Shown here piece after piece: positions 1 to 51,908 of a DNA stretch of 55,120 bases (its first letter is position 1; each line of letters begins with the position of its first letter). Under the pieces are notes generated by a model. That model was not told the origin of the DNA. It saw only the letters and a program-made list of their open reading frames with translations, and ran no database searches. The stretch lies in the NCBI GenBank assembly GCA_036385755.1, contig DASVJU010000029.1:1-55120 (forward strand). Direction: 5' to 3'. The position numbers and the translations under genes were made by a program. The stretch is from Thermoanaerobaculia bacterium (GTDB taxonomy: Bacteria; Acidobacteriota; Thermoanaerobaculia; UBA5066).

Positions 1-4334
<4,334 letters not shown>

Positions 4335-28945: not shown

Positions 28946-29541
28946 CGTCTCTCGCCCACGGCGTCCAGCGCCTCCCTCTCCCGGAGGAATCCCGGCGAAC
29001 CTCGTTCGTCGGGATGGTGATGGCGCTCGCGTCGTGGACGATGCTCTTCGTCGCGCTCTTCTTTTCGTATGCCGTCCTGAGGCTGAACGCCGCGACGTGG
29101 CCCCCGGACGGCCTCGCGCCCCTGCCGAAGGCGCTCCCGTTCCTGAACACGCTCGTTCTTCTCGCGTCCAGCCTGCTCCTTCACCGCGGCACGCGCCCCG
29201 AATCGGAAGAGAAGCCCGGTACGCTCCGGCGCGCCATCCTCGGGACGATGGCGCTCGGCGGCCTTTTCCTGGCGCTGCAGCTCGCCGTGTGGATCCCGCT
29301 CTGGCAGAGCGGATTTCGCATCGACAACACGGGGCCTTACGGGTCGATTTTCTATGGCCTCACCGTGTTCCATGCGCTCCACGTCCTCGCGGGACTCCTC
29401 GCGCTCGCTCTTCTCCTGCCCGGCGCCTTCTCGGGGCGCCATACCTCGGGCCGCTCGAGCTCCGTGCGCCTTTCGGCCATGTTCTGGCATTTCGTCGACG
29501 TCGTCTGGGTCGTCATGTTCGTCGCCGTCTATCTCGTTTGA
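28942..29541 (+). CDS. coxC: Heme-copper oxidase subunit III (first copy)
   Basis: In-frame tail of track ORF 27394..29541. The TTG start overlaps the coxA stop (TTGA). Motifs GSIFYGLTVFHALHVLAGL and FWHFVDVVWVVMFVAVY are typical of subunit III. Confidence 0.8.
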   Translation: MTSLAHGVQRLPLPEESRRTSFVGMVMALASWTMLFVALFFSYAVLRLNAATWPPDGLAPLPKALPFLNTLVLLASSLLLHRGTRPESEEKPGTLRRAILGTMALGGLFLALQLAVWIPLWQSGFRIDNTGPYGSIFYGLTVFHALHVLAGLLALALLLPGAFSGRHTSGRSSSVRLSAMFWHFVDVVWVVMFVAVYLV

Positions 29542-29543
29542 GA

Positions 29544-29580
29544 TCGGAAGAGAGAGAGAAAGACTTCTATGAAGGTCGGA
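29544..29580 (+). repeat. Purine-rich low-GC module, copy 4 (weaker match)
   Basis: TCGGAAGAGAGAGAGAAAGACTTCTATGAAGGTCGGA resembles the rc of 47891-47934 (TCGGAAGAGAAGAGAAAGAAGAGAGTTTTCTTAGAGGGTCCC). It spans the SD and start region of the cytochrome c gene. Confidence 0.4.
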
Positions 29581-34236: not shown

Positions 34237-34914
34237 ATGATGAAGTTCACCCGCCTCGCGCTGCCGCTCGCCATCGCCGCACTCCTCGCGGGCTGCACGC
34301 ACGGCGTCGAGATGAAGATGGCCATCGACGTCCTTTCGGAGCCCGAGAAGGCCACCGTGACCTACAAAGGCAAGAACATCGGCGAGACGCCTCAATCCCT
34401 CAACGTGAAGACGTTCGAGGACGTCAGCTCGATCATGGCGACGAGCGCCGATCTCGAGGTCGTCGAGAAGCGCATCCGGATCGTGTCGCCCGACCAGGCG
34501 CAGGTCATCTTCCGCATGGGCAAAGGCGGCATCTCTCCGGTCGCGAAAAAGCTCGGCATGACGCGCGTCCTCGTCTTCGAATACGCCGAGAAGGTCTGCT
34601 TCGACTCGGGAAAGTCCGATCTCAAGCCGGACGCGCTGCCCGTCCTCGCCAAGCAGGCCGAGATCCTGAATCAGTATTTTCCGAAGGCCGTCGCCTACGT
34701 CTGCGGCTACACGGACGCGACCGGGAGCGACGCCTTCAACGACAAGCTCTCGCTGCAGCGCGCCGAAGCCGTGCGGAACCTCCTCGTGAACCAGAACGTG
34801 GACGCGGCGCGCCTCAAGACTCAGGGCTTCGGCAAGCAGTTCGAGGTGGCGCCCAACACCACGGCCGAGGGCCGCGCGCTGAACCGCCGGACGGAGGTCA
34901 TCCTTCCGGACTAG
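34237..34914 (+). CDS. OmpA-family lipoprotein with an N-terminal PEGA-like domain
   Basis: In-frame tail of track ORF 33589..34914. Lipobox LLAGC. C-terminal OmpA_C motifs (GYTDATGSDAFNDKLSLQRAEAV, ALNRRTEV). Confidence 0.85.
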   Translation: MMKFTRLALPLAIAALLAGCTHGVEMKMAIDVLSEPEKATVTYKGKNIGETPQSLNVKTFEDVSSIMATSADLEVVEKRIRIVSPDQAQVIFRMGKGGISPVAKKLGMTRVLVFEYAEKVCFDSGKSDLKPDALPVLAKQAEILNQYFPKAVAYVCGYTDATGSDAFNDKLSLQRAEAVRNLLVNQNVDAARLKTQGFGKQFEVAPNTTAEGRALNRRTEVILPD

Positions 34915-36953
34915 GGTTGTCCTTCGGGCGGGGCGTCGAGAGCGTCGGCCGGCGGCAGGAAGAACCTCCCCGGCGCCTCTTTCAGCGCTTTCCACACCGC
35001 GTAGACGAGCCGCCGGAGGTCCCGGCTCGTCAGGCCGCACGCGCGCGCGGCGACCGTGAACGCGAGGGCGAAGCTCACCGTGAAGTTCATGAGCGCGATC
35101 GCCGCGACACCCGCGAGCGCCCACAGGAACGGGGGCTTCAGGAACGCGTCGAGCGGAAACGTCACGGCTGCGAGCGCAAGGGCCCCCGACGACAGCGTCA
35201 CGTGCCGGACCTCGAGGGGAAGCCCGAAAAAAGACGCGACCGCGGGCGTCATGCCGAGAAAGAAGCCGAGCGAGACGTTGCTCCCGAATCCGCTGACGTT
35301 CCTCTGAAACCTGTGCGCGATGCGCGCGCGCCGGTCCGGGCCGAAAAACCGCCCGAACGCCGCGCTACGTTGAAGCGCCTCCGGGAGCCGGTTGTAGTTC
35401 GACCAGTTCTCCAGCCAGCCGCCGATGACGCTCGACAGCCACAGGTAGAACCCCGTGAGGGCGGCGAAGACGATCGTTCCCGAGCGGAAGGGGTGGAGCG
35501 TGTCCACCGCGTGGTGCACTTCCTCGTCCGTGAAGTACGCGTGACCGGAAACGGCCCTCCAGAGCAGGCCCAGGAGCACCGCGACGGGAAAGACCAACCC
35601 GATGTTTCCCGCGATCGCGGCGAGCTGCGAGCGCGTCGTCCGCGCGAGGAGGTCGACGAGCGTGTCCCGGTGGGTTCCGCGCGCCTCGAGCGCCGATGCG
35701 AGCGTCGCGGCCGTGGCGGCGGGTTGCTTCGTCGCGACCGTGAAGTGCAGGGCCTGGATGAGGAGAAAGCTCGCCGCGTAGTTCACGGACGCCGCGAAAC
35801 CGCTGAAGAACGGCGCGAAAGGAAGCGTGAGCAGGACGTACTTCACGACCGTGGTCCCGGCCATGACCGCGCCCCCGCCCGCCGCCGACCCCCACATCTG
35901 CCGGTATTCCGCGCGGGACCCCGTGATGTAGTGCTCGCCTGTCGCGCCCGCGCTCTCGATGATCTTCCGCGAGAGGAGCCGCGTGTTCGCACGCACGAGC
36001 CCGTGCACGCCGCTCTCCCGCGCGCCCTGACGCACGAGGGTCGCGAGGAACGCGCGCCCGTCGGGCGGTGCGCCCGGCCCGGGCGCGAGGAACTCGAAAA
36101 GGCTTTCCAGGCGGTCCAACGCGCGTCCGAGAAGATCGATCCGGAAAACGAGGTCCATGCTCGTTCCGAACGTCTCGAGATGGCTGGTCACGACGCCGAG
36201 CATGTCCCGACAGGCGGCGATGTCCGCTCGGGCCTCGCCGCAGAGGTGGGAGAGCGCGACCGCTGATGCCGTGCGGCTCCGCGAGGCCTCGGTCACCCGG
36301 CCCACGCTTCGCGGGAGCCGGAGAAACGGCGACGCCCCGACGGTTCCGTCGTTGGCGCGCGCACGCACGTCCGGGCCGAGACCGAGCCCGCCCACGCGGA
36401 CCGCGAGGAGATCCGCCGCGTCCGCGACATCGCCGTGCCGCGCGCCCCAGGGAGTCTCCCCCGTCCGGAACACGACCGCGAAGAGGGCGGCGACGTCGCC
36501 GGCGGGAAGGCTTTCCAGCCAGTCCGCGTCCACTTCGTCGGGAAGGAGGCGCGCGACGACCTCCCGGAGATGGTGGTCGTTCGGAACGGACGGCAGGATC
36601 TTGCTCGCGAGGCGGTCGGCAAGCTCTCCCAGGAAGTTGTGCCGCGCCCCCAGTCCCGTCTCGGCGAAGAGCTCGACCGCCGACGTCGCGCCGAGGAGCG
36701 CGCGCAGTCGCGCCGCCAACGCCGCCGCGAGAAGAGGCCGGCCTTCGAGAACTTCCCGGAAGAAGGCGAGTCGCAGGGCGGCTGCCCCGCCGGGCCCCGG
36801 TTTCTTCAACCAGGCGAGGATCGGCTCGAGCCACTCGCCGAGGGCGCCGGCGTCGTCCGCGTCCACCGGCGCGACGAGAAGCGCCTCGAGCGCGACGCTG
36901 GCTCGACGCGTGCGAGGCGAAAGCGCGGCGGCGGGCGTCGCGTTTGCCGTCAT
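34911..36953 (-). CDS. Large integral membrane protein; possibly the family annotated as 'site-specific recombinase' (Gcr-type), unverified
   Basis: I take ATG 36953 (MTANATP...) as the start; the first 52 codons of the track ORF are Arg/Ser-rich junk. The N-terminal half is soluble and helical, and the C-terminal half has 6-8 TM segments. The GATGEHYITG motif is what reminds me of that family, from memory only. Confidence 0.6.
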   Translation of the reverse strand: MTANATPAAALSPRTRRASVALEALLVAPVDADDAGALGEWLEPILAWLKKPGPGGAAALRLAFFREVLEGRPLLAAALAARLRALLGATSAVELFAETGLGARHNFLGELADRLASKILPSVPNDHHLREVVARLLPDEVDADWLESLPAGDVAALFAVVFRTGETPWGARHGDVADAADLLAVRVGGLGLGPDVRARANDGTVGASPFLRLPRSVGRVTEASRSRTASAVALSHLCGEARADIAACRDMLGVVTSHLETFGTSMDLVFRIDLLGRALDRLESLFEFLAPGPGAPPDGRAFLATLVRQGARESGVHGLVRANTRLLSRKIIESAGATGEHYITGSRAEYRQMWGSAAGGGAVMAGTTVVKYVLLTLPFAPFFSGFAASVNYAASFLLIQALHFTVATKQPAATAATLASALEARGTHRDTLVDLLARTTRSQLAAIAGNIGLVFPVAVLLGLLWRAVSGHAYFTDEEVHHAVDTLHPFRSGTIVFAALTGFYLWLSSVIGGWLENWSNYNRLPEALQRSAAFGRFFGPDRRARIAHRFQRNVSGFGSNVSLGFFLGMTPAVASFFGLPLEVRHVTLSSGALALAAVTFPLDAFLKPPFLWALAGVAAIALMNFTVSFALAFTVAARACGLTSRDLRRLVYAVWKALKEAPGRFFLPPADALDAPPEGQP

Positions 36954-37060
36954 GCCCGGCGAGCTTAACCCGTCGACCTCGACTCGGGCTTCCCCTGTCG
37001 AACGACGGAATCGATCGCGATCCCTCGACCTGGAATACGATCTGCGGGAGAGGAGATCTC

Positions 37061-37528
37061 GTGAAAACGTTCCTCGCGCTCTCGCTGCTCTCCATGCTGA
37101 TCGCCGCATCCGCTCGCGCAGACGACACCGCAGGACGCGAGGCGCTGTTGAAGACGGATCGTGATTTCGCTGCGGCGGCGCAGACGCGCGGCGTCGAGGC
37201 GTGGGTCGAGAACTGGGCCGGGAACGGCGTTCATCCGGACGGTTCCACGGGTGTCGCCGTCGGGAAGGACGGAATCCGCAAGCAGATGGGCCCTCAGTAC
37301 GCGACGCCCGGATTCTCGCTTACGTGGTCGCCCTCGCGCGCGGAAATCTCGAGGGGCGGGAACGTCGGGACGACCTGGGGCCGGTACAAGGCCACGGGCA
37401 TCAAAGACGGCAAGAAGGTCGTCAGGGCCGGCGACTACGTCACCGTTTGGCAGAAAGAAGAAGACGGTTCCTGGAAGGTCGCGTTCGACACCGGTGACCG
37501 CGACCCGGAGCCTCGACCGAAGCCGTAA
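37061..37528 (+). CDS. Secreted SnoaL/NTF2-like (DUF4440-type) protein
   Basis: GTG 37061 lies after GGGAGAGGAG. Signal peptide VKTFLALSLLSMLIAASARA. The ending YVTVWQKEEDGSWKVAFD is typical of DUF4440. Confidence 0.65.
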   Translation: MKTFLALSLLSMLIAASARADDTAGREALLKTDRDFAAAAQTRGVEAWVENWAGNGVHPDGSTGVAVGKDGIRKQMGPQYATPGFSLTWSPSRAEISRGGNVGTTWGRYKATGIKDGKKVVRAGDYVTVWQKEEDGSWKVAFDTGDRDPEPRPKP

Positions 37529-37966: not shown

Positions 37967-38863
37967 ATGAAATCTGCTCCCGATAGGACGTTCACGCCAT
38001 CGAAAGGACTCCTGCTCGTCGGGCTGCTGTGGGCGACGATGCCGGGTTCGCTGCACGCCCAGATGGACCCCTACTTCACCGCGATCAACTACCCGGTTGA
38101 AAAACACTCTCTCATGGTGATGGCCTTGCCGGATCTTCAGGTTGCGCGATACGGCAACGATTTCGCCACCGGGATGCTCATGGTCCAGTACGGAATTACC
38201 TCTCGATGGACGGTCGGCGTCATGGCCGAGGGCCAGAAGATCTCCGGTATGCCCGCGACCTACGGCGGCATTCGGTTCAACACGTACTTCCATCTGTTCC
38301 GAGACGACCGGTTCCTGAACCTGACCCTGTACGGTGAGTACGAGGATCTCAATGGGGCGGCGCTGTACAAAATGGAAGTCGCCGGCTTCGGCCCCGAAGA
38401 CCTGACCGAACCGTTGTCGCTCGCACGCGGAACCTCCGTCCGCACGTTCGAACAGCGCCTGATCGTTTATCACGACTGGGGCCGGCTCAATGCGACCTTC
38501 AACTTCATCAGGGAAACCGCTCTCCAGGAGCCGCACGGAAGCGACTACGGCTACGCCCTGGGTGTCTTCTTCAAGCCGTCATGGATGGGTGACTCGATGG
38601 CAGGGATGGCCGACATGGCGGCGCCACCGGCGCTTTCGATGAGCCGCCTCGGCTACGGCCTGGAGATGATCGGAGCGCTGGGAGACAACGAGCGGTTCGG
38701 TGTTTACTGGAGTTCCCAGCAGCATTACCTCGGTCCGGTCTTCACGTACGACCTCTCTTCCCGCTTGTCGGTGCGCCTCGAGCCCGCGGTGGGACTTTCC
38801 AACGTCAGCGACCCCTTCATGCTGCGCATGGGTGTGGCGTTCATGTTCGGTTCTCATCAGTGA
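37967..38863 (+). CDS. Putative outer-membrane beta-barrel protein with a Met-rich loop, function unknown
   Basis: 298 aa with visibly lower GC. Signal peptide ...LLWATMPGSLHA. Alternating hydrophobic beta-strand patterns, a Met-rich segment WMGDSMAGMADMAAPPALSM, and an aromatic C-terminal strand GVAFMF. Confidence 0.6.
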   Translation: MKSAPDRTFTPSKGLLLVGLLWATMPGSLHAQMDPYFTAINYPVEKHSLMVMALPDLQVARYGNDFATGMLMVQYGITSRWTVGVMAEGQKISGMPATYGGIRFNTYFHLFRDDRFLNLTLYGEYEDLNGAALYKMEVAGFGPEDLTEPLSLARGTSVRTFEQRLIVYHDWGRLNATFNFIRETALQEPHGSDYGYALGVFFKPSWMGDSMAGMADMAAPPALSMSRLGYGLEMIGALGDNERFGVYWSSQQHYLGPVFTYDLSSRLSVRLEPAVGLSNVSDPFMLRMGVAFMFGSHQ

Positions 38864-39395
38864 GCCGAGGGGACGAGCGACCCCGCGCCAGTTCATCATC
38901 CCCATGCCGCACCCGCCGTTCATCATGTTCCCCATCACGACGTAGCCGTCGTTCGTCGCATTGTCGTTGACGACCGCGGAAAATCAACACGAGCAGAACC
39001 GGGACCACGAGCCATTGCGCGAGCGGGGCCAGTCCGATTCCGAAGACGCGGGGCATGGATTCGGCGTAGTGCCACGAGAGTGTCACCTGCGTGTTGAACC
39101 ACTCACTCCAGACCGTGTACGCGAAGCCAATGGAGACGAAGAGGATGGTGGGCCCGCAGCGGCTTTCGTGGAGCCACTGTCTCGACCGGAGGGCGAGCGA
39201 CGTGACCCCGAACGCAAAGAAAAGAATCAGCGTGTCGCCAGCGGCGCAATGCAGCCGGGTTCGGAGCAGATAGCCGAACTCCCTACCGTGGTCAGAATAG
39301 AGGGGCGACTGAAGAAACTCCCAGGCCGCGTTCAGGCCAAAGGCCAGACCCGCTACGGAAAGCTCCGGGAACCTTCGCAACAAGACGGGCAACAC
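38841..39395 (-). CDS. 4-5 TM membrane protein coupled to copA; the C-terminal ~45 codons look chimeric
   Basis: GTG 39395 overlaps the copA stop (TAGTG). The hydrophobic body ends at ...LVVPVLLVLIF. After that the frame reads Arg/Asp-rich junk through a gene remnant that lies in another frame. Confidence 0.6.
   Translation of the reverse strand: MLPVLLRRFPELSVAGLAFGLNAAWEFLQSPLYSDHGREFGYLLRTRLHCAAGDTLILFFAFGVTSLALRSRQWLHESRCGPTILFVSIGFAYTVWSEWFNTQVTLSWHYAESMPRVFGIGLAPLAQWLVVPVLLVLIFRGRQRQCDERRLRRDGEHDERRVRHGDDELARGRSSPRLTDENRT
38901..38983 (-). pseudogene. 3'-terminal remnant of a paralogue of the Met-rich secreted protein gene at 51000..51908
   Basis: The minus strand 38977-38901 aligns to 51813-51889 with 69 of 77 identities, counted by hand, including a 32-nt exact run (38944-38913 = 51846-51877). 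It encodes SAVVNDNATNDGYVVMGNMMNGGCGMG versus SYAVVNDNLTNDGYVVMGNMMNGGRGMG. The frame is closed upstream by TGA at 38986-38984. Confidence 0.6.
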
Positions 39396-41806
39396 TACAA
39401 GTCGGTGCGCCGAAGCCTCAGCGCATTGGTGATGACGGAGACCGAGCTCAGGCTCATCGCGGCGCTCGCGATGATCGGAGACAGGAGGAGGCCGAAGAAC
39501 GGGTAGAGGACGCCGGCCGCCAGCGGAACGCCGAGTGAATTGTAAAGAAACGCGAAAAAGAGGTTCTGCCGGATGTTCCGGATCGTCGCGCGGCTCAGCC
39601 GTCGCGCGCGCAGGAGGCCGGCGAGATCGCCTCCGACGAGCGTCACGCCCGCGCTCTGGATGGCGACGTCGGTCCCCGTCCCCATCGCGATGCCCACGTC
39701 GGCCGCGGCCAGCGCGGGCGCGTCATTGATGCCGTCTCCCGCCATCGCGACGATCCGGCCCTCGCTCTTCAGCCGCGCCACGACCTCGGCCTTGCCCGCC
39801 GGAAGCACACCCGCCTCGACGCTGTCGATGCCGAGCTCTTTGGCGACCGCCTCGGCCGTGGCCTTCGCGTCGCCCGTGAGCATCACGACACGAATCTCGA
39901 GGTCATGCATTGCGGCGATGGCGGCGCGCGTGGAAGGCCTGATCGGATCCGCGGCGCCGAGGAACCCTGCGGGCTTCCCGTCCACGGCAACGAAGAGGAT
40001 CGTCTGGCCCTTCGCGCGCGCAGCGTCGGCCTCTGCGATTAGCCCAGGAGAGAAGGGAGAAGAAAGAGAAGAAAGATTTGCTTCGAACAGGGAAAGAGAG
40101 CCAACCGCAACCTGATGCCCCTCGACGAGCGCCTGCGCGCCCCTGCCCGGAAACGCGCGAAACTCACTCGGAGGCGCCAGCTGCAGATGGCGCTCCATCG
40201 CCAACTTGACGACCGCCGCTGCGAGGGGGTGCTCACTCCCCCTTTCTAAGCAAGCTGCGAAGCGAACAAGCGCATCCTCCTGCAGGCCTGGCGCGGGTCT
40301 TACCAAAGAGATTTTCGGCTTCCCTTCCGTCAGCGTACCCGTCTTGTCCACGACGAGCGTATCCACCTTTTCGAGCCGCTCGAGCGCAGCCGCGTCCTTG
40401 AAAAGAACCCCCGCCGCCGCGCCGCGACCCATCGCGACCATGATGGACATCGGAGTCGCGAGGCCCAGCGCGCATGGGCACGCGATGATGAGAACGGCGA
40501 CGGCGTTCACGAGCGCGTGGACGAAACGCGGTTCGGGCCCGACGAGCGCCCAGATCGCGAAGGTGAGCGCCGCGACGAGAATCACGACGGGGACGAAGAC
40601 GGCGGCGACCCGGTCCGCGAGGCGCTGGATTGGCGCGCGGCTCCGCTGGGCGTCGGACACCATGCGGACGATCTGCGCGAGGACGGTGTCGCCGCCCACC
40701 TTCAGGGCCTCGATGACGAGAGCGCCGTTCCCGTTCACAGTCGCGCCCGTCACGGCATCGCCGGCCTTCTTGGCGACCGGAACCGGCTCGCCCGTAATCA
40801 TGGATTCGTCGACCGCGCTCGTCCCCTCGAGAACGCGCCCGTCGACGGGAACGCGCTCACCCGGGCGCACGCGCACGCGGTCCCCGATCTTAAGGCGCTC
40901 GATCGGAACGTCTTCGTCGGTTCCGTCCGCGTGTACGAGCCGCGCGGTCTTCGGAGCCAGGCCAAGGAGCGCCCGGATCGCACCGCCGGTGCGGTTCCGC
41001 GCGACGAGCTCGAGAACCTGACCCAGGAGCACGAGCGTCGTGATGACGGCCGCCGCCTCGAAGTAGACGTCGTGGACAGGGGAATGAGACGAAGAGGGAG
41101 AAGGAGAAGAAAGGAAAGATTTGCTTAGAAAGGGAATAAGGGACCCGATCGTTCTCCCTAGGCTGTAGAGGTATGCCGCGCCTGTCCCGAGCGCGATCAG
41201 CGTGAACATGTTCAGGTTGCGCGTCTTGACCGACGTCCATCCGCGCTGGAAGAACGGCCAACCGCACCACAGCACCACGGGCGTCGCGAGAAGCAATTGC
41301 GCGAGAAGGCCGAGACGCGGCGGGATCCCGTCGATGAGCCGGGGCGCGACCATCGCGCTCATTTCGAAGAAAAGCAGCGGTACGGTGAGAACGACGGCGA
41401 CTCGCAGCCGGCGCTTCATGTCGACGAGCTCGGGATTCGGCGCGTCGTCCAGTGACACGGTCTTCGGCTCGAGCGCCATCCCGCAGATCGGGCAAGCGCC
41501 CGGAGAGGGCCGGACGATCTCGGGGTCCATCGGGCACGTGTACTCGATGCCGGCGCCGGTGGGCGCCGTGAACGGCTTGGGGGGCGCCGACGCCATCGGC
41601 TCGAACACGCCGCCCGAGCTCGCGGCAAGATATTTCTCGGGTTCCCGCCGGAATTTCTCGAGGCAGCCAGCGCTGCAGAAGAAGTAGTCCTTTCCGTCGT
41701 GAGCGGCCGAGTGCTTCGTCTTGATCGGGTCGACGTTCATGCCGCAGACGAGGTCCTTCACGGTCCCGGGCGGTGACGAGGAAGGGAGCGTTGGAAGGGT
41801 CAACAT
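39395..41806 (-). CDS. copA: Copper(I)/silver-translocating P1B-type ATPase
   Basis: 803 aa. N-terminal YHS/TRASH-like VCGMNVDP...YFFCSAGC, plus a second metal-binding module [28 protein letters not shown] motif CPC ([13 protein letters not shown]), phosphorylation site DKTGTLT, and hinge [11 protein letters not shown]. Confidence 0.93.
40046..40102 (+). repeat. Purine-rich low-GC module, copy 1 (inside copA, antisense to the gene)
   Basis: CAGGAGAGAAGGGAGAAGAAAGAGAAGAAAGATTTGCTTCGAACAGGGAAAGAGAGCC. Translated on the copA strand as [20 protein letters not shown]. Confidence 0.7.
41078..41146 (+). repeat. Purine-rich low-GC module, copy 2 (inside copA, antisense to the gene)
   Basis: AGGGGAATGAGACGAAGAGGGAGAAGGAGAAGAAAGGAAAGATTTGCTTAGAAAGGGAATAAGGGACCC. 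Translated on the copA strand as [23 protein letters not shown]. It shares the AAGATTTGCTT core with copy 1, read in a different frame. Confidence 0.7.
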
Positions 41807-46547: not shown

Positions 46548-47936
46548 CTACATCCTCGGCGTGGCGCCGGCGGAGAGAGCGGATGATTTCGGCGGAGCGG
46601 CGGACGACGGGCCCCCGTCGAGAGAGAACTCGCGAAGGTCGGCCTCGGCGCGCAGGAGGTCGGCGAGCCGCGCGACGGCGCCGCGGCGATCCGTGAATCT
46701 CGTGCTCAGGGCCTCGAGAACGGTGACGAAGGGGACCGATCCGGTCCTGTAGCTCGTGAGCGCGGCGTCCACCGCGAGGCGGTCCTGGACGAGGAGGGCC
46801 TCGGTGTCGAGCCGGGATTCATCTCCGAGCTGCCGGATCCTGATCAGCCTCTCTTCCGTGCGGGCCAGGGCCTGGCGCCGCAGCGAGGCCTCGTTCGCCG
46901 AAGCCGCCTCGAAGAGGCTTCGCGCCTCGACGATCAAGGGGCGCTGCTTCCTGCCGGCCCAGAGAGGAACGGAAACGCCGACGCCGGCGGACCACATGAG
47001 GGGCAGAGAGCCGCGGTTCATGTAGGCCGCGGACGCCACGAAGTCGGGGCGCAGGTTGCGGTGGGCCAGCTCCCCGGCGAGGCGCGAGCGCTCCATCGCG
47101 AGGGCGGCGTCCCTCAGCTCGGGCGTCTTTTCCAGGGTCATCTTCTGGAAGTCCTCGGCCGATGGCGCGGCGTGGGGTTCGTCGGGGACGAGCCGCCGTT
47201 CCGTCGGAACGGGCGTGTCCATCGGGCGATCGAGGAACCGGCGAAGCTCGACGAGGGCGCCCTCTTCGGCGGCCTCGTCTTTTCGCCGCCGCTGGAGGAG
47301 GCGCGTGTGCTCGCTCTGGGCGCGAAGAACGTCCTGCTGCGTCCCCATCCCGGCCGAGTACCGGGCGCGGATGACCTCCTCGATCTCCCGCCAGGTCTCG
47401 ATCTGTTCGTCCACGAGACGAAGGTCTTCCCGCGCCTCGAGAAGCGTCGCGTAGCCGCGTCTCACGGCCGCTTCGAGAGTGAGCGCCACGCGCTCGGGCC
47501 GCGTGGCGGCCCGCTCGGCGTCCGCCTTCGCGACGCGCTCCTGAAGGCCGAGCTTCCCCGGAAACGGGATCGCCTGCTGCGCCATGAACTGCAGGCGCGT
47601 CATGGCCTCGACGCCGAGGGAGGGCGACACGCCGTCGTTCTCGTAGTTCACGGTCACCATCGGGTCGGGCAGGGCTCCCGCCGGAGAGACGCGCGCGCGG
47701 GCGGCCGCGGCTTCCTGTCTCGCCGCGACGAGATCCGGGTTCTTTGCGAGCGCCTCGGCGACGAGTGCGTCGGCCTCCGACGAAGCGGCGGCCGCAGCCG
47801 GCTCCGCCGCGAACGCGATACCCGCGAAGGAAATCGACGCGCTTGCCAAAGCGAGACACCACGGCAGAAGCACACGGCCCGCGGCTACTCGGGACCCTCT
47901 AAGAAAACTCTCTTCTTTCTCTTCTCTTCCGACCAT
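46548..47936 (-). CDS. cusC: TolC-family outer-membrane efflux channel (CusC-like)
   Basis: 462 aa with tandem OEP repeats (LVAEALAKNPDL..., ...RYSAGMGTQQDVLRAQ..., ...YRTGSVPFVTVLEA...). ATG 47936 has GAGGAG 7 nt upstream. The first 15 codons (MVGREEKEESFLRGS) come from the purine-rich module. GTG 47873 is the alternative start. Confidence 0.85.
   Translation of the reverse strand: MVGREEKEESFLRGSRVAAGRVLLPWCLALASASISFAGIAFAAEPAAAAASSEADALVAEALAKNPDLVAARQEAAAARARVSPAGALPDPMVTVNYENDGVSPSLGVEAMTRLQFMAQQAIPFPGKLGLQERVAKADAERAATRPERVALTLEAAVRRGYATLLEAREDLRLVDEQIETWREIEEVIRARYSAGMGTQQDVLRAQSEHTRLLQRRRKDEAAEEGALVELRRFLDRPMDTPVPTERRLVPDEPHAAPSAEDFQKMTLEKTPELRDAALAMERSRLAGELAHRNLRPDFVASAAYMNRGSLPLMWSAGVGVSVPLWAGRKQRPLIVEARSLFEAASANEASLRRQALARTEERLIRIRQLGDESRLDTEALLVQDRLAVDAALTSYRTGSVPFVTVLEALSTRFTDRRGAVARLADLLRAEADLREFSLDGGPSSAAPPKSSALSAGATPRM
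47891..47934 (-). repeat. Purine-rich low-GC module, copy 3 (sense orientation, forms the 5' end of cusC)
   Basis: The minus strand reads TCGGAAGAGAAGAGAAAGAAGAGAGTTTTCTTAGAGGGTCCC. It has the same GA-tract / T-rich / AGA-GGG-CCC architecture as the copA copies. Confidence 0.55.
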
Positions 47937-48009
47937 CTGATTCTCCTCGCGCGAAAAGCCTCACGGAGCCGCCCGAAGCGGGCGGCGCGAGAACGGCTCG
48001 ACGCAGGAA

Positions 48010-48417
48010 TCAGACGAGGAAGACGGAGTAGAGGAGGAAAAGCGGCGCGGGCCGGGCGCGCGGCTGGACGCGGCGCACGTGTCCTTCCCGGGAGCCCGCG
48101 CAGGCGGGAAGCGGCAATTCGAGAAAGCTCGCTTCGGGGGCGGCGAGCGCGGGGGCGGCGGGCGACATCAGCGAAGGCGCCGCCTCTTCCGGGGCGGACA
48201 AACGGCAGCATCCAGCGGACGAGTCCGCGGGGGAACCCGGGGGAGCGTTTTCGCCCATCGCGCAGCATGCGGGGGCGTCGTCGGACATCCCCGCCGCCGC
48301 GCAGCAGGGCGGACGCGGCGCGGTCCTGGGAGCAGCAAGCGCCACCGCCGACAGGAGCACCGCCGCGAGCGCCGCGGACGCCCCTCGAAACGCCAATGCC
48401 GCAGAAGACCGACTCAT
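48010..48417 (-). CDS. Secreted protein with three Cys-Cys pairs, heading the cus operon, function unknown
   Basis: 135 aa from ATG 48417. Signal peptide MSRSSAALAFRGASAALAAVLLSAVALAA. Motifs PPCCAAAGM, PACCAMGE and AGCCRLS. Hydrophobic C-terminus LFLLYSVFLV. Confidence 0.6.
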   Translation of the reverse strand: MSRSSAALAFRGASAALAAVLLSAVALAAPRTAPRPPCCAAAGMSDDAPACCAMGENAPPGSPADSSAGCCRLSAPEEAAPSLMSPAAPALAAPEASFLELPLPACAGSREGHVRRVQPRARPAPLFLLYSVFLV

Positions 48418-50999: not shown

Positions 51000-51908
51000 A
51001 TGAAGTCAGTTCGATCGATTCTCGCCGCGACGACCGTCGCCGTCACGCTTATGGCATTTCCCGCCTTCGCCCAGATGGGCGGCGGTCCCGGCACCGGAAC
51101 CCAGAACGGCCCGATGGACGGCATGACGAACGGCAGCGAAGACCTCGTCATCCCCGCGGGCGTCCGTGGGCCGGGCCTTTTCGGCTCGTTCTTCGTGACC
51201 GATCTCTGGATCAAGGCGAGCGCGACGGGAACCGCGACGCTCTATTTCCACAAGGCCGACTCGGCCACCTCGGCGCCTTTCGCGACGACGACCGTCAGTC
51301 TGACCCAGCCCATCACGTACCTGCCGGACGTCCTCCAGGCAAACTTCGGCATCCCGACCGGCTTCGGGGCGATCCGCGTCGCCGCAAGCTTCTCGGTCTC
51401 GGCGACCGTGCGCGTCTACAACCAGTCCGGTGCCGGCGCTTACGGGCTCGCGTTCATGGGGATGCCCACGCGCATGTCCATGAGCTCGCTTCCGATGACG
51501 GGCGGGCACGGGATGGACGAGTATGCGATGTACATGCTCGGGCTCCTGCCGGAGCCGGGTAACCGCGTCAACGTGAACGTCGTCTCCACCTCGGGCGACG
51601 GCGCCGCGGGGGTCGTGGAGATCGTCGACGCCGACGCCAGCACCCCGTCTGGCTCCGGCGCGAAGAGTCTTCCCTTCACGCTTGCGGGCTTCTCGTCGCA
51701 CCAGTTCAACGACGTCCTCGCGAACGTCCACTCGAAGTTCCCGGCCGGCGACGCGGGCCTCCAGGTCCGGGTTCGGATGAGCCAGGGTGCGTCGGGGATG
51801 GTGATGTCCTACGCGGTCGTGAACGACAACCTCACGAACGACGGGTACGTCGTGATGGGGAACATGATGAACGGCGGCCGCGGCATGGGCGGCGGCATGA
51901 TGCCCTGA
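51000..51908 (+). CDS. Secreted Met/Gly-rich protein, function unknown (candidate periplasmic Cu(I)/Ag(I)-binding protein)
   Basis: 302 aa. Signal peptide MKSVRSILAATTVAVTLMAFPAFA. Met-rich N-terminal (QMGGGPGTGTQNGPMDGMTNG), internal (FMGMPTRMSMSSLPMTGGHGMDEYAMYM) and C-terminal (VMGNMMNGGRGMGGGMMP) segments flank a beta-rich core. Confidence 0.7.
   Translation: MKSVRSILAATTVAVTLMAFPAFAQMGGGPGTGTQNGPMDGMTNGSEDLVIPAGVRGPGLFGSFFVTDLWIKASATGTATLYFHKADSATSAPFATTTVSLTQPITYLPDVLQANFGIPTGFGAIRVAASFSVSATVRVYNQSGAGAYGLAFMGMPTRMSMSSLPMTGGHGMDEYAMYMLGLLPEPGNRVNVNVVSTSGDGAAGVVEIVDADASTPSGSGAKSLPFTLAGFSSHQFNDVLANVHSKFPAGDAGLQVRVRMSQGASGMVMSYAVVNDNLTNDGYVVMGNMMNGGRGMGGGMMP

Follow-up and report, generated by a model that had tools for sequence, protein, structure and literature searches.

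The window analyzed here comprises 55,120 nt of contig DASVJU010000029.1 (assembly GCA_036385755.1) from a Thermoanaerobaculia bacterium and carries on its reverse strand copA, the gene for a copper-exporting P-type ATPase, together with cus genes and the DNA ligase gene ligA. Two short tracts with a low guanine-plus-cytosine (GC) content lie inside copA and are probably old copies of a short repeat that is dispersed in the DNA of Thermoanaerobaculia-type Acidobacteriota with about 68% GC and specific to them. The host gene and the two tracts are located as follows; numbers beginning with L designate the compared DNA loci and those beginning with P the compared protein relatives.

copA, 39395..41806, (-): open reading frame (ORF) of 803 amino acids (aa), Cu+-exporting P-type ATPase with a YHS and HMBD N-terminus
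Region 1, 40046..40102, (-): probable pyrimidine-arm copy of the repeat, CopA residues 569-587, nucleotide-binding domain
Region 2, 41078..41146, (-): probable pyrimidine-arm copy, CopA residues 221-243, extracytoplasmic MB'-M1 loop before VYFEAAAVI

The two low-GC tracts of copA

The ORF contained the Pfam domains PF04945, PF19335, PF00122 and PF00702 (YHS, HMBD, E1-E2_ATPase and Hydrolase), and its product was 99% identical to P0001 ('Cu+-exporting ATPase') and matched Legionella CopA (3RFU) over the full length with E=5e-251. The motifs CPC, DKTGT, SEHPL and GDGxND were invariant in the orthologue alignment, and an eight-helix topology with MA and MB was found.

The two low-GC, purine-rich stretches described in a first-pass annotation of this DNA proved to be real: in 60-nt windows the GC content fell to 0.42–0.47 at 40030-40119 and 41080-41169, compared to about 0.68 in the flanks and a mean of 0.69 for the whole window. 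On the sense strand of copA both patches are pyrimidine tracts, region 1 reading GGC TCT CTT TCC CTG TTC GAA GCA AAT CTT TCT TCT CTT TCT TCT CCC TTC TCT CC and region 2 beginning with CCC TTT CTA AGC AAA TCT TTC CTT TCT TCT CCT. Codons ending in A or T made up 28 of the 42 in the two patches, with 7.8 expected from the usage for the same amino acids elsewhere. At third positions T was enriched (57% vs 11%) and G depleted (7% vs 35%), while A was unchanged (10% vs 10%), so the bias is toward pyrimidine and not simply toward AT or rare codons.

The placement of the tracts within the protein was confirmed as first proposed, and structure prediction agreed with a location in surface loops. In the AlphaFold2 model of CopA (mean predicted local distance difference test, pLDDT, 66.5) residues 225-245 of region 2 formed a low-confidence coil (pLDDT <50) between helices 200-228 and 249-280, and region 1 was modeled as a strand (564-569), a helix (571-575) and a coil (576-586); both tracts are thus predicted to encode loop segments.

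Similarity between the two tracts was well above that of randomized sequences. The word AAAGATTTGCTT had exactly two occurrences in the window, and the alignment of regions 1 and 2 gave 41/49 identical columns with three small gaps and a Smith-Waterman score of 53, a value that no mononucleotide or codon shuffle out of 500 attained (p<0.002 each). Their longest common word of 13 nt (p=0.016 against codon shuffles) is read as GAA GCA AAT CTT TC in region 1 and within CTA AGC AAA TCT TTC in region 2, and a 4-nt indel brings the tails of the two regions into one frame (LSSP). In most other genomes the similarity between regions 1 and 2 was non-significant. The orthologues offered intermediates: where region 1 of the window has GAA GCA AAT CTT, most of them have GAA GAG AAT TCT, L102 has GAA GCA AGT CTC and L104 has GAA GCA AAT CCT. 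Region 2 of the window separately gained TCT TTC CTT, and L104, whose region 1 already has GCAAAT, reads GGCAAG in its own region 2. These sequences show that the 13-mer identity was built stepwise in this sublineage (GAG>GCA, AGT>AAT and CCT>CTT in region 1), so that the insertion of one module twice, as originally suggested for this gene, is not what happened in copA. With L102, L103 and L104 as stepwise intermediates there was no need to assume a single gene conversion from region 2 to region 1, and this reading was rejected. Conversion of short patches between copies may have taken place, and the pair of regions in the window hints at homogenisation of copies within a genome.

The age of the tracts was assessed with 23 clade copA genes or fragments at the DNA level and with an alignment of 28 CopA proteins. 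The protein search returned many CopA relatives at 70-99% identity, which, where named, belonged to Thermoanaerobaculia or Acidobacteriota metagenome-assembled genomes (MAGs); in a scan of genome contigs with the entire CopA sequence, the generic MAGDGIND pattern dominated the matches and no relative above 61% identity was obtained. About 20 CopA orthologues (68-99% identity) had both tracts in identical positions, conserved as the peptides LIPFLSK..SSSSVSSxHSP (region 2) and GSLSLFEExSLRLSSPFP (region 1), while the homologues in the alignment at <=62% identity had neither segment. Conservation as peptides partly counts against the original reading, by the standard which the first-pass annotation had itself set, although orthologues at <=62% identity lack the tracts. 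The GC content at third codon positions dipped to 0.35-0.45, against a gene mean of 0.85, in the same columns of all 23 clade sequences, and the rare A/T-ending codons of the tracts were kept even at 68% protein identity. Both tracts predate the divergence of the clade and are best read as ancient, diverged copies of the repeat.

Compared to Legionella CopA (3RFU), region 1 was longer by a net ~5 residues and region 2 by ~9, and the GSLSLFE segment of region 1 aligned with the universal GNARLMQ. Because of this alignment and the small net gain in length, the copA tracts are not pure insertions, ancestral sequence having been partly replaced. The length of region 2 among orthologues ranged from 0 (L093) to ~20 aa, with L089 nearly lacking it, and it always changed by whole codons inside TCT/TCG runs. 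In region 1 of the window a tandem 9-nt duplication (CTTTCTTCT x2) was present.

Several candidate features of the tracts were rejected. A hairpin/dyad in region 1 (CGAAGAG-AATT-CTCTTCG) had no consensus structure in RNAalifold (-1.8 kcal/mol) and was 75% paired compared to 71% in shuffles, with one covarying pair; its complementarity follows from codons for Glu-Glu and then Ser-Leu, which are complementary by nature. Judged by the sequence alone, neither programmed frameshifting at CCC TTT CTA A nor a Rho-utilisation site inside the gene gained any support, T rather than C being enriched in the tracts.

In the branch at 61-69% identity the MB'-M1 loop reads FQGRFAGH, LQRNLADH or FRRSFADH (L087 6700-6760, L092 5835-5862 and L100). 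The corresponding DNA of L087, TTT CAA GGA AGA TTT GCC, resembles, on the sense strand, an oppositely oriented repeat core, which possibly reflects a local inversion.

A dispersed repeat read in several frames

The repeat was first detected in a scan of clade loci for purine- or pyrimidine-rich tracts and then with an nhmmer profile of region 2, whose matches outside copA were marginal by score, yet shared long exact words. A profile built from non-copA copies only produced 14 matches at E<=0.01 in the 262 kb of clade DNA searched, none at this threshold in 20 shuffles with composition preserved in 60-nt windows, and a best match of E=0.35 in 620 kb of non-clade control loci. The same profile matched copA at region 2 (E=0.005, L094), at a further site termed R0 (0.034) and at region 1 orthologues (0.064-0.17), and with a mixed profile the window's own region 1 and region 2 were scored at E=3e-4 and E=4e-6, respectively.

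The repeat unit consists of a ~20-nt core, ACCTTC(T/G)AAGAAATCTTC, followed by a pyrimidine tail of 15-30 nt, and its purine arm, (GAR)n-GAAGATTTCTT(A/C)GAAGGT, is the reverse complement of core and tail. The dispersed repeat NEVERTHELESS was present across clade loci in unrelated genes, in all frames and in both orientations, often as inverted pairs, and nearly all copies were intragenic. A frequent layout had the purine arm first and a pyrimidine arm 35-250 nt behind it, as in the central loop of a major facilitator superfamily (MFS) transporter, at the cusB start, at the ABC1/ABC2 junction, in ligA and at R0 of copA. The arm pair of L087 had a 20-nt inverted identity; the core as such is not self-complementary beyond TTCTnAGAA. 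Long identical words were found in unrelated places: the 21-mer GATTCACCTTCTAAGAAATCT occurred both in the N-terminal part of an ABC-ATPase gene (L087) and in intergenic DNA 5.5 kb from copA (L084:13934), and the 20-mer TCACCTTCGAAGAAATCTTC both in the cusB start insertion of L084 and in ligA of the window (1744-1778), with chance expectations of 0.0002 and 0.003, respectively, among the 262 kb. In addition, region 1 of L092 and the ABC-ATPase copy of L087 had an 18-mer in common. The further copies for which a profile search had been proposed were thereby found in related genomes and in the window itself; those in the window and the additional sites in copA are listed below.

ligA, 227..2317, (-): NAD-dependent DNA ligase with the Pfam domains DNA_ligase_aden, OB, ZBD, HHH and BRCT
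ligA purine arm, 1744..1778, (-): sense GCG CGG AAG ATT TCT TCG AAG GTG AAG ATA; E=4.6e-6
ligA weak pyrimidine-arm-like match, 1486..1503, (-): sense CTC GAA GAA ATC TCT TTC C = LEEISF
cusC start purine arm, 47890..47936, (-): gene for the cus outer-membrane factor with an OEP domain; E=0.003 with the non-copA profile
R0, linker between YHS and HMBD in copA: confined to L092 and L093, absent from L087; core CCT TCT AAG CAG ATT, third frame
Region 3, 40240..40254, (-): possible remnant of a purine-arm core, sense TGC TTA GAA AGG GGG (C-L-E-R-G of a conserved 10-residue motif)

The LigA of the window matched Escherichia coli LigA (2OWO) with E=1e-181, and its purine arm is a 10-residue insertion in the adenylation domain, exactly where the E. 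coli protein is gapped. The weak match 250 nt downstream of it (E=0.17-0.5) aligned ungapped to FKKWGL of the E. coli enzyme, with no change in length, and is an uncertain member. At the cusC start the sense strand reads ATG GTC GGA AGA GAA GAG AAA GAA GAG AGT TTT CTT AGA GGG TCC CG = MVGREEKEESFLRGS; the reverse-orientation core was present there in the window, L001 and L002, and the L001 orthologue reached E=3e-5 with the non-copA profile. The related core in the central loop of the MFS transporter was orthologous in L087 and L100. Upstream of cusC there is also a small ORF (window 47937-48060, (-); 63 aa in L002, 493-549; L001 3770-3834), which ends in a pyrimidine tract, CTTTTCCTCCTCTACTCCGTCTTCCTCGTCTGATTCC, complementary to the Shine-Dalgarno (SD) and start region of cusC, GGAGAATCAGATGGTCGGAAGA; judged by this complementarity, a leader or SD-sequestering arrangement is possible.

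Region 3, an exact inverted 13-mer of region 2 located 150 nt upstream of region 1, had a profile match of only E=0.27, and its membership is uncertain; together with region 1 it perhaps forms another arm pair. Its rare-codon allele was conserved in the window, L085-L088, L093 and L102-L104, and the position was GC-rich in L001, L084, L091, L094 and L097-L099. Long-range pairing between regions 2 and 3 was rejected, since seven orthologues keep region 2 yet have the GC-rich allele of region 3. The same two groups of loci were distinguished by the copA N-domain at large (window 40180-40330), where one 21-residue block has two alleles, a rare-codon, AT-rich one in the former group and a GC-rich one, LLRLAASVERASEHPLAGAVV, in the latter, distributed without following overall identity; the N-domain is a recombination mosaic.

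Three further candidates were discarded: L100:628-673 is the antisense of copA's own N-terminus, hence no independent copy; the purine-rich DNA at 29540-29575 represents a normal gene start with its SD; and six matches of the canonical 19-mer in viral contigs, all of them on phage contigs with 29-46% GC and without flanking tracts, are due to chance.

The core was translated in three forward frames, as CTA AGC AAA (region 2), TTC GAA GAG (region 1, MFS and ligA) or TCT AAG AAA (the L087 ABC gene and R0 of L093), and in reverse as GAT TTC TTA GAA or AAG ATT TCT TCG AAG. The resulting peptides were LSKS, FEEN, SKKS/SKQI and HLRRN in one direction and DFLEG, EDFLRR and KISSK in the other, and ligA, MFS and copA region 1 were the only sites in one common frame. 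The view that conservation lies in the DNA and crosses reading frames, which had been founded on the 13-mer of the two copA tracts, was thus extended to copies elsewhere. All host ORFs (copA, ligA, cusB, cusC, MFS and ABC) remained open through the copies. At each of the five sites where the frame would expose a TAA or TAG of the core, a substitution was present (TTC GAA, TCG AAG or TTG AAG), region 1 with its TTC GAA variant sidestepping an in-frame TAA. Codons made of pyrimidines only specify Ser, Leu, Phe or Pro and contain no stop in any frame, and the purine arm encodes Glu, Lys, Arg or Gly. The lack of stops among pyrimidine-only codons explains both the composition of the tract peptides and their tolerance of frame changes, and this tolerance, together with the replacement of the core stops, accounts for the varied appearance of the same DNA, as LSKS, FEEN or SKKS, in surface loops, in linkers and at termini.

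Presence/absence polymorphisms at orthologous sites were observed in cusB, copA and ligA. The cusB start of L084 has ~100 extra nt, composed of a purine core, a 60-nt GC-rich spacer and a pyrimidine core, which add ~24 residues in-frame and are lacking in five orthologous loci; the insert apparently supplies the SD and the ATG. Among 114 LigA relatives (70-100% identity) the loop varied from 2 to 66 residues, being short like that of E. coli in 24, with one or two peptides of the KISSK/ISEKGKRG type in 56 and with PFEE(K/N) in 11, peptides that also occur in the MFS loop and in region 1 of copA. Some of the LigA loops (P0132, P0134, P0144, P0149, P0150 and P0158) contain tandem purine-arm peptides (ISEKGKRGAA...ARRISSKV), which indicates that the repeat can duplicate locally besides forming inverted pairs.

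Origin of the tracts and alternative explanations

If the copA tracts are old copies of this repeat, its copies would enter coding DNA by short insertion or patch replacement and persist where their translation is tolerated, and the resident tracts would evolve by whole-codon slippage and compensated frameshifts, leading to length hypervariability. The copies may have spread like selfish or non-autonomous elements, or one copy may have served as the template for another in repair or conversion.

A number of observations weigh against this origin. No transposase or other mobilising gene linked to the repeat was seen near the copies, and no target-site duplication was evident at the cusB insertion in comparison with the five empty sites, with flanks that are too diverged for a reliable comparison. 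The spacers between arms are unrelated, the core alone recurs and the inserts vary from 30 to 110 nt; all these points make classical transposition a poor fit. The small amount of clade DNA is the main weakness, as the 262 kb are no genome-wide census and provided about ten independent sites, and the LigA loop as a hot-spot was deduced from the peptides of relatives, not from DNA. Regions 1 and 2 of the window itself were missed at E<=1 by the non-copA profile, although some of their orthologues were found, and the assignment of the copA tracts to the repeat therefore depends on individually weak E-values together with positional coincidence. Finally, each copA tract is in part homologous to the ancestral CopA, so in-situ recoding under selective or mutational pressure could mimic insertion.

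Among the alternatives, a functional cis-element fared best but is still unlikely. According to it, the arms are protein-binding or RNA-pairing sites written into coding DNA by selection and tuning translation or mRNA processing, with SD-like purine arms and with pyrimidine arms as their pairing partners across start codons or gene junctions. The location of arms at translation starts is in line with this: the SD and ATG of L084 cusB lie inside a purine arm, another arm is at the cusC start, and the ABC1 stop and ABC2 start of L087 lie between arms. Minimum free energy folds did pair the arms, but the folding of the compact elements was no better than that of dinucleotide shuffles (z = +0.03, -1.37 and +0.11), region 1 had no consensus structure and a single covarying pair, and the promoter-like, terminator-like and Rfam scans gave no match. 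Selection at the sequence level would be compatible with a ~20-nt core conserved far beyond the need of mere complementarity, with A/T-ending codons kept across saturated divergence and with copA tracts that partly replace ancestral sequence with little change in length; on the other hand, many arms are solo and deep inside ORFs (copA region 2, and ligA in most relatives), the hosts are functionally unrelated (ligA, MFS, ABC, cus and copA) and the extreme length polymorphism of LigA resembles neutral turnover. A more specific version seems quite doubtful, namely that the repeat is a translation-control device, with SD-like purine and anti-SD-like pyrimidine arms pairing across the cusB, cusC and ABC junctions, which was copied into many genes including essential ones. 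The core GATTCACCTTCTAAG presumably resembles the 3' end of 16S rRNA and the start of the following spacer, GGATCACCTCCTTTCTAAG.

It is very unlikely that no repeat family exists and that the tracts are low-complexity Ser/Pro/Leu/Phe loops made by slippage and similar through shared composition. The whole-codon indels and the tandem 9-mer do show slippage at work, the similarity of regions 1 and 2 is non-significant in most genomes, with a 13-mer of stepwise origin, and several profile matches became marginal after composition correction. Such a process leaves unexplained, however, why unrelated genes from different genomes have identical 20-21-mers with both purines and pyrimidines in common, why local-composition shuffles gave zero matches, why purine arms occur in reverse orientation and why the non-repetitive half of region 1 keeps its rare A/T-ending codons at 68% protein identity. 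Slippage describes the evolution of resident copies, not the origin of the core.

Conserved rare-codon clusters, slowing translation for membrane insertion after MB' and for folding of the nucleotide-binding domain, are highly improbable: the patch codons are strongly non-optimal and the dips are conserved in orthologues at a transmembrane loop and a domain edge, but the enrichment of T (57%) with G depleted and A flat points to maintenance of a pyrimidine tract and not to rarity, common codons such as TCC occur freely in the tracts, region 2 is wholly absent in L093 and nearly so in L089, and the same core is found in unrelated genes and in antisense orientation. The recent double insertion of one mobile module into this copA, which the high similarity of the two regions in this genome might suggest, is scarcely credible for tracts that predate the clade divergence and whose intermediates, e.g. 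L104, show stepwise convergence.

Taken as a dispersed repeat, the element has its closest analogue in the Rickettsia palindromic elements (RPEs), units of ~150 bp in which each family has one conserved peptide in one frame (Ogata et al. 2000, summarised in PMC10969869), but it is not a member of that family. Similar to RPEs, it forms short in-frame repeats in unrelated genes, including essential ones, which are left intact, and adds peptides in surface loops; its arm-spacer-arm versions (cusB ~115 nt, MFS ~125 nt and the long LigA loops) likewise form inverted repeats and are comparable in size, and the same peptides recur in ligA, MFS and copA region 1 (EKISxK...PFEE[K/N]). In contrast to RPEs, there is no discrete palindromic unit of 100-150 bp but a ~20-nt core with a compositional tail, solo arms being common; in copA the copies stand alone or flank conserved host sequence as arms at a distance of 150 nt; reading makes use of three frames and both orientations, with no single conserved peptide; and the host is a free-living, GC-rich member of the Acidobacteriota instead of a reduced, AT-rich intracellular genome. 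The RPE likeness proposed in the first-pass annotation is thus justified for in-frame residence in intact ORFs, and does not extend to a unit that is neither palindromic itself nor of fixed length.

MITEs (miniature transposable elements with inverted repeats), including the intragenic ERIC and QMITE (PMC10969869), are similar in being non-autonomous-looking and relatively AT-rich, with inverted arms, occasional in-frame ORF fusions and solo or truncated copies. The present repeat is not a classical MITE: it has no definable ends, conserved length or internal sequence, no related insertion sequence was seen, and its transcripts are no more stable than shuffles. REP/REPIN elements are extragenic imperfect palindromes of 20-40 nt in genomes with a RAYT transposase, in contrast to the nearly always intragenic copies found here and to their core, which has no self-complementarity beyond TTCTnAGAA. 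DNA uptake sequences (USS/DUS) consist of a short core with a biased flank, occur in both orientations and as inverted pairs, also within ORFs, where they are read in several frames in poorly conserved protein segments, can arise by replacement, and reach a density of about one per kb. The repeat differs from them in its density of about one per 10-25 kb of DNA searched and in its clear multi-codon insertions; we know of no link to competence for this lineage. Translated dyad-symmetric DNA with both arms coding is also known from PARCELs, tandem 25-residue amphipathic repeats in surface proteins (PMC2996958), and from the long, perfect, gene-specific palindromes of nematomorph mitochondria (PMC6649704), neither of which is a dispersed 20-nt core with purine/pyrimidine-asymmetric arms. 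The literature search, which returned RPEs, MITEs, PARCELs and coding palindromes, produced nothing of this kind for Acidobacteria.

To our knowledge, the textbook examples of short repeats that have colonised essential genes in-frame are limited to Rickettsia and a small number of genomes that are AT-rich or reduced. The same phenomenon in a different form would be present here in a free-living, 68%-GC and mostly uncultured class of Acidobacteriota, with a visible effect on proteins in the striking length variation of the LigA loop (2-66 residues) and of the CopA periplasmic loop. A compositional anomaly inside a gene can accordingly be old and conserved, not recent. If confirmed genome-wide, the repeat would offer a natural setting in which to study the tolerance of coding DNA for invading repeats and possibly a marker for strain typing, and it would call for caution in the annotation, structure prediction and phylogeny of these MAGs, since such loops mimic assembly errors or foreign DNA.

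Genes next to copA

A conserved membrane ORF of 184 aa (38841-39395, (-)) without a Pfam match has a start that overlaps with the stop of copA, and it is followed by a convergent ORF of 298 aa, also without a Pfam match; both are syntenic in L002. A gene for a PF10136 site-specific recombinase (window 34911-37109, (-); L002 11596-13638) is located 2.3 kb from copA; it is the window's single recombinase and has no evident link to the repeat. Beyond the recombinase, the 99%-identical contig L002 has other genes (OmpA, kinase and cytochrome oxidase) than the window, which suggests that the cus-copA cluster is at a rearrangement-prone site or an island boundary. An inverted repeat of 78 nt (90% identity), at 38901-38978 and 51812-51889, represents the common C-terminal coding sequence (VVNDNxTNDGYVVMGNMMNGG) of two Met/Gly-rich paralogues, one intact (51000-51908, (+)) and the other a truncated remnant beside copA with a stop ahead of it. 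Their Met-rich tails suggest copper binding.

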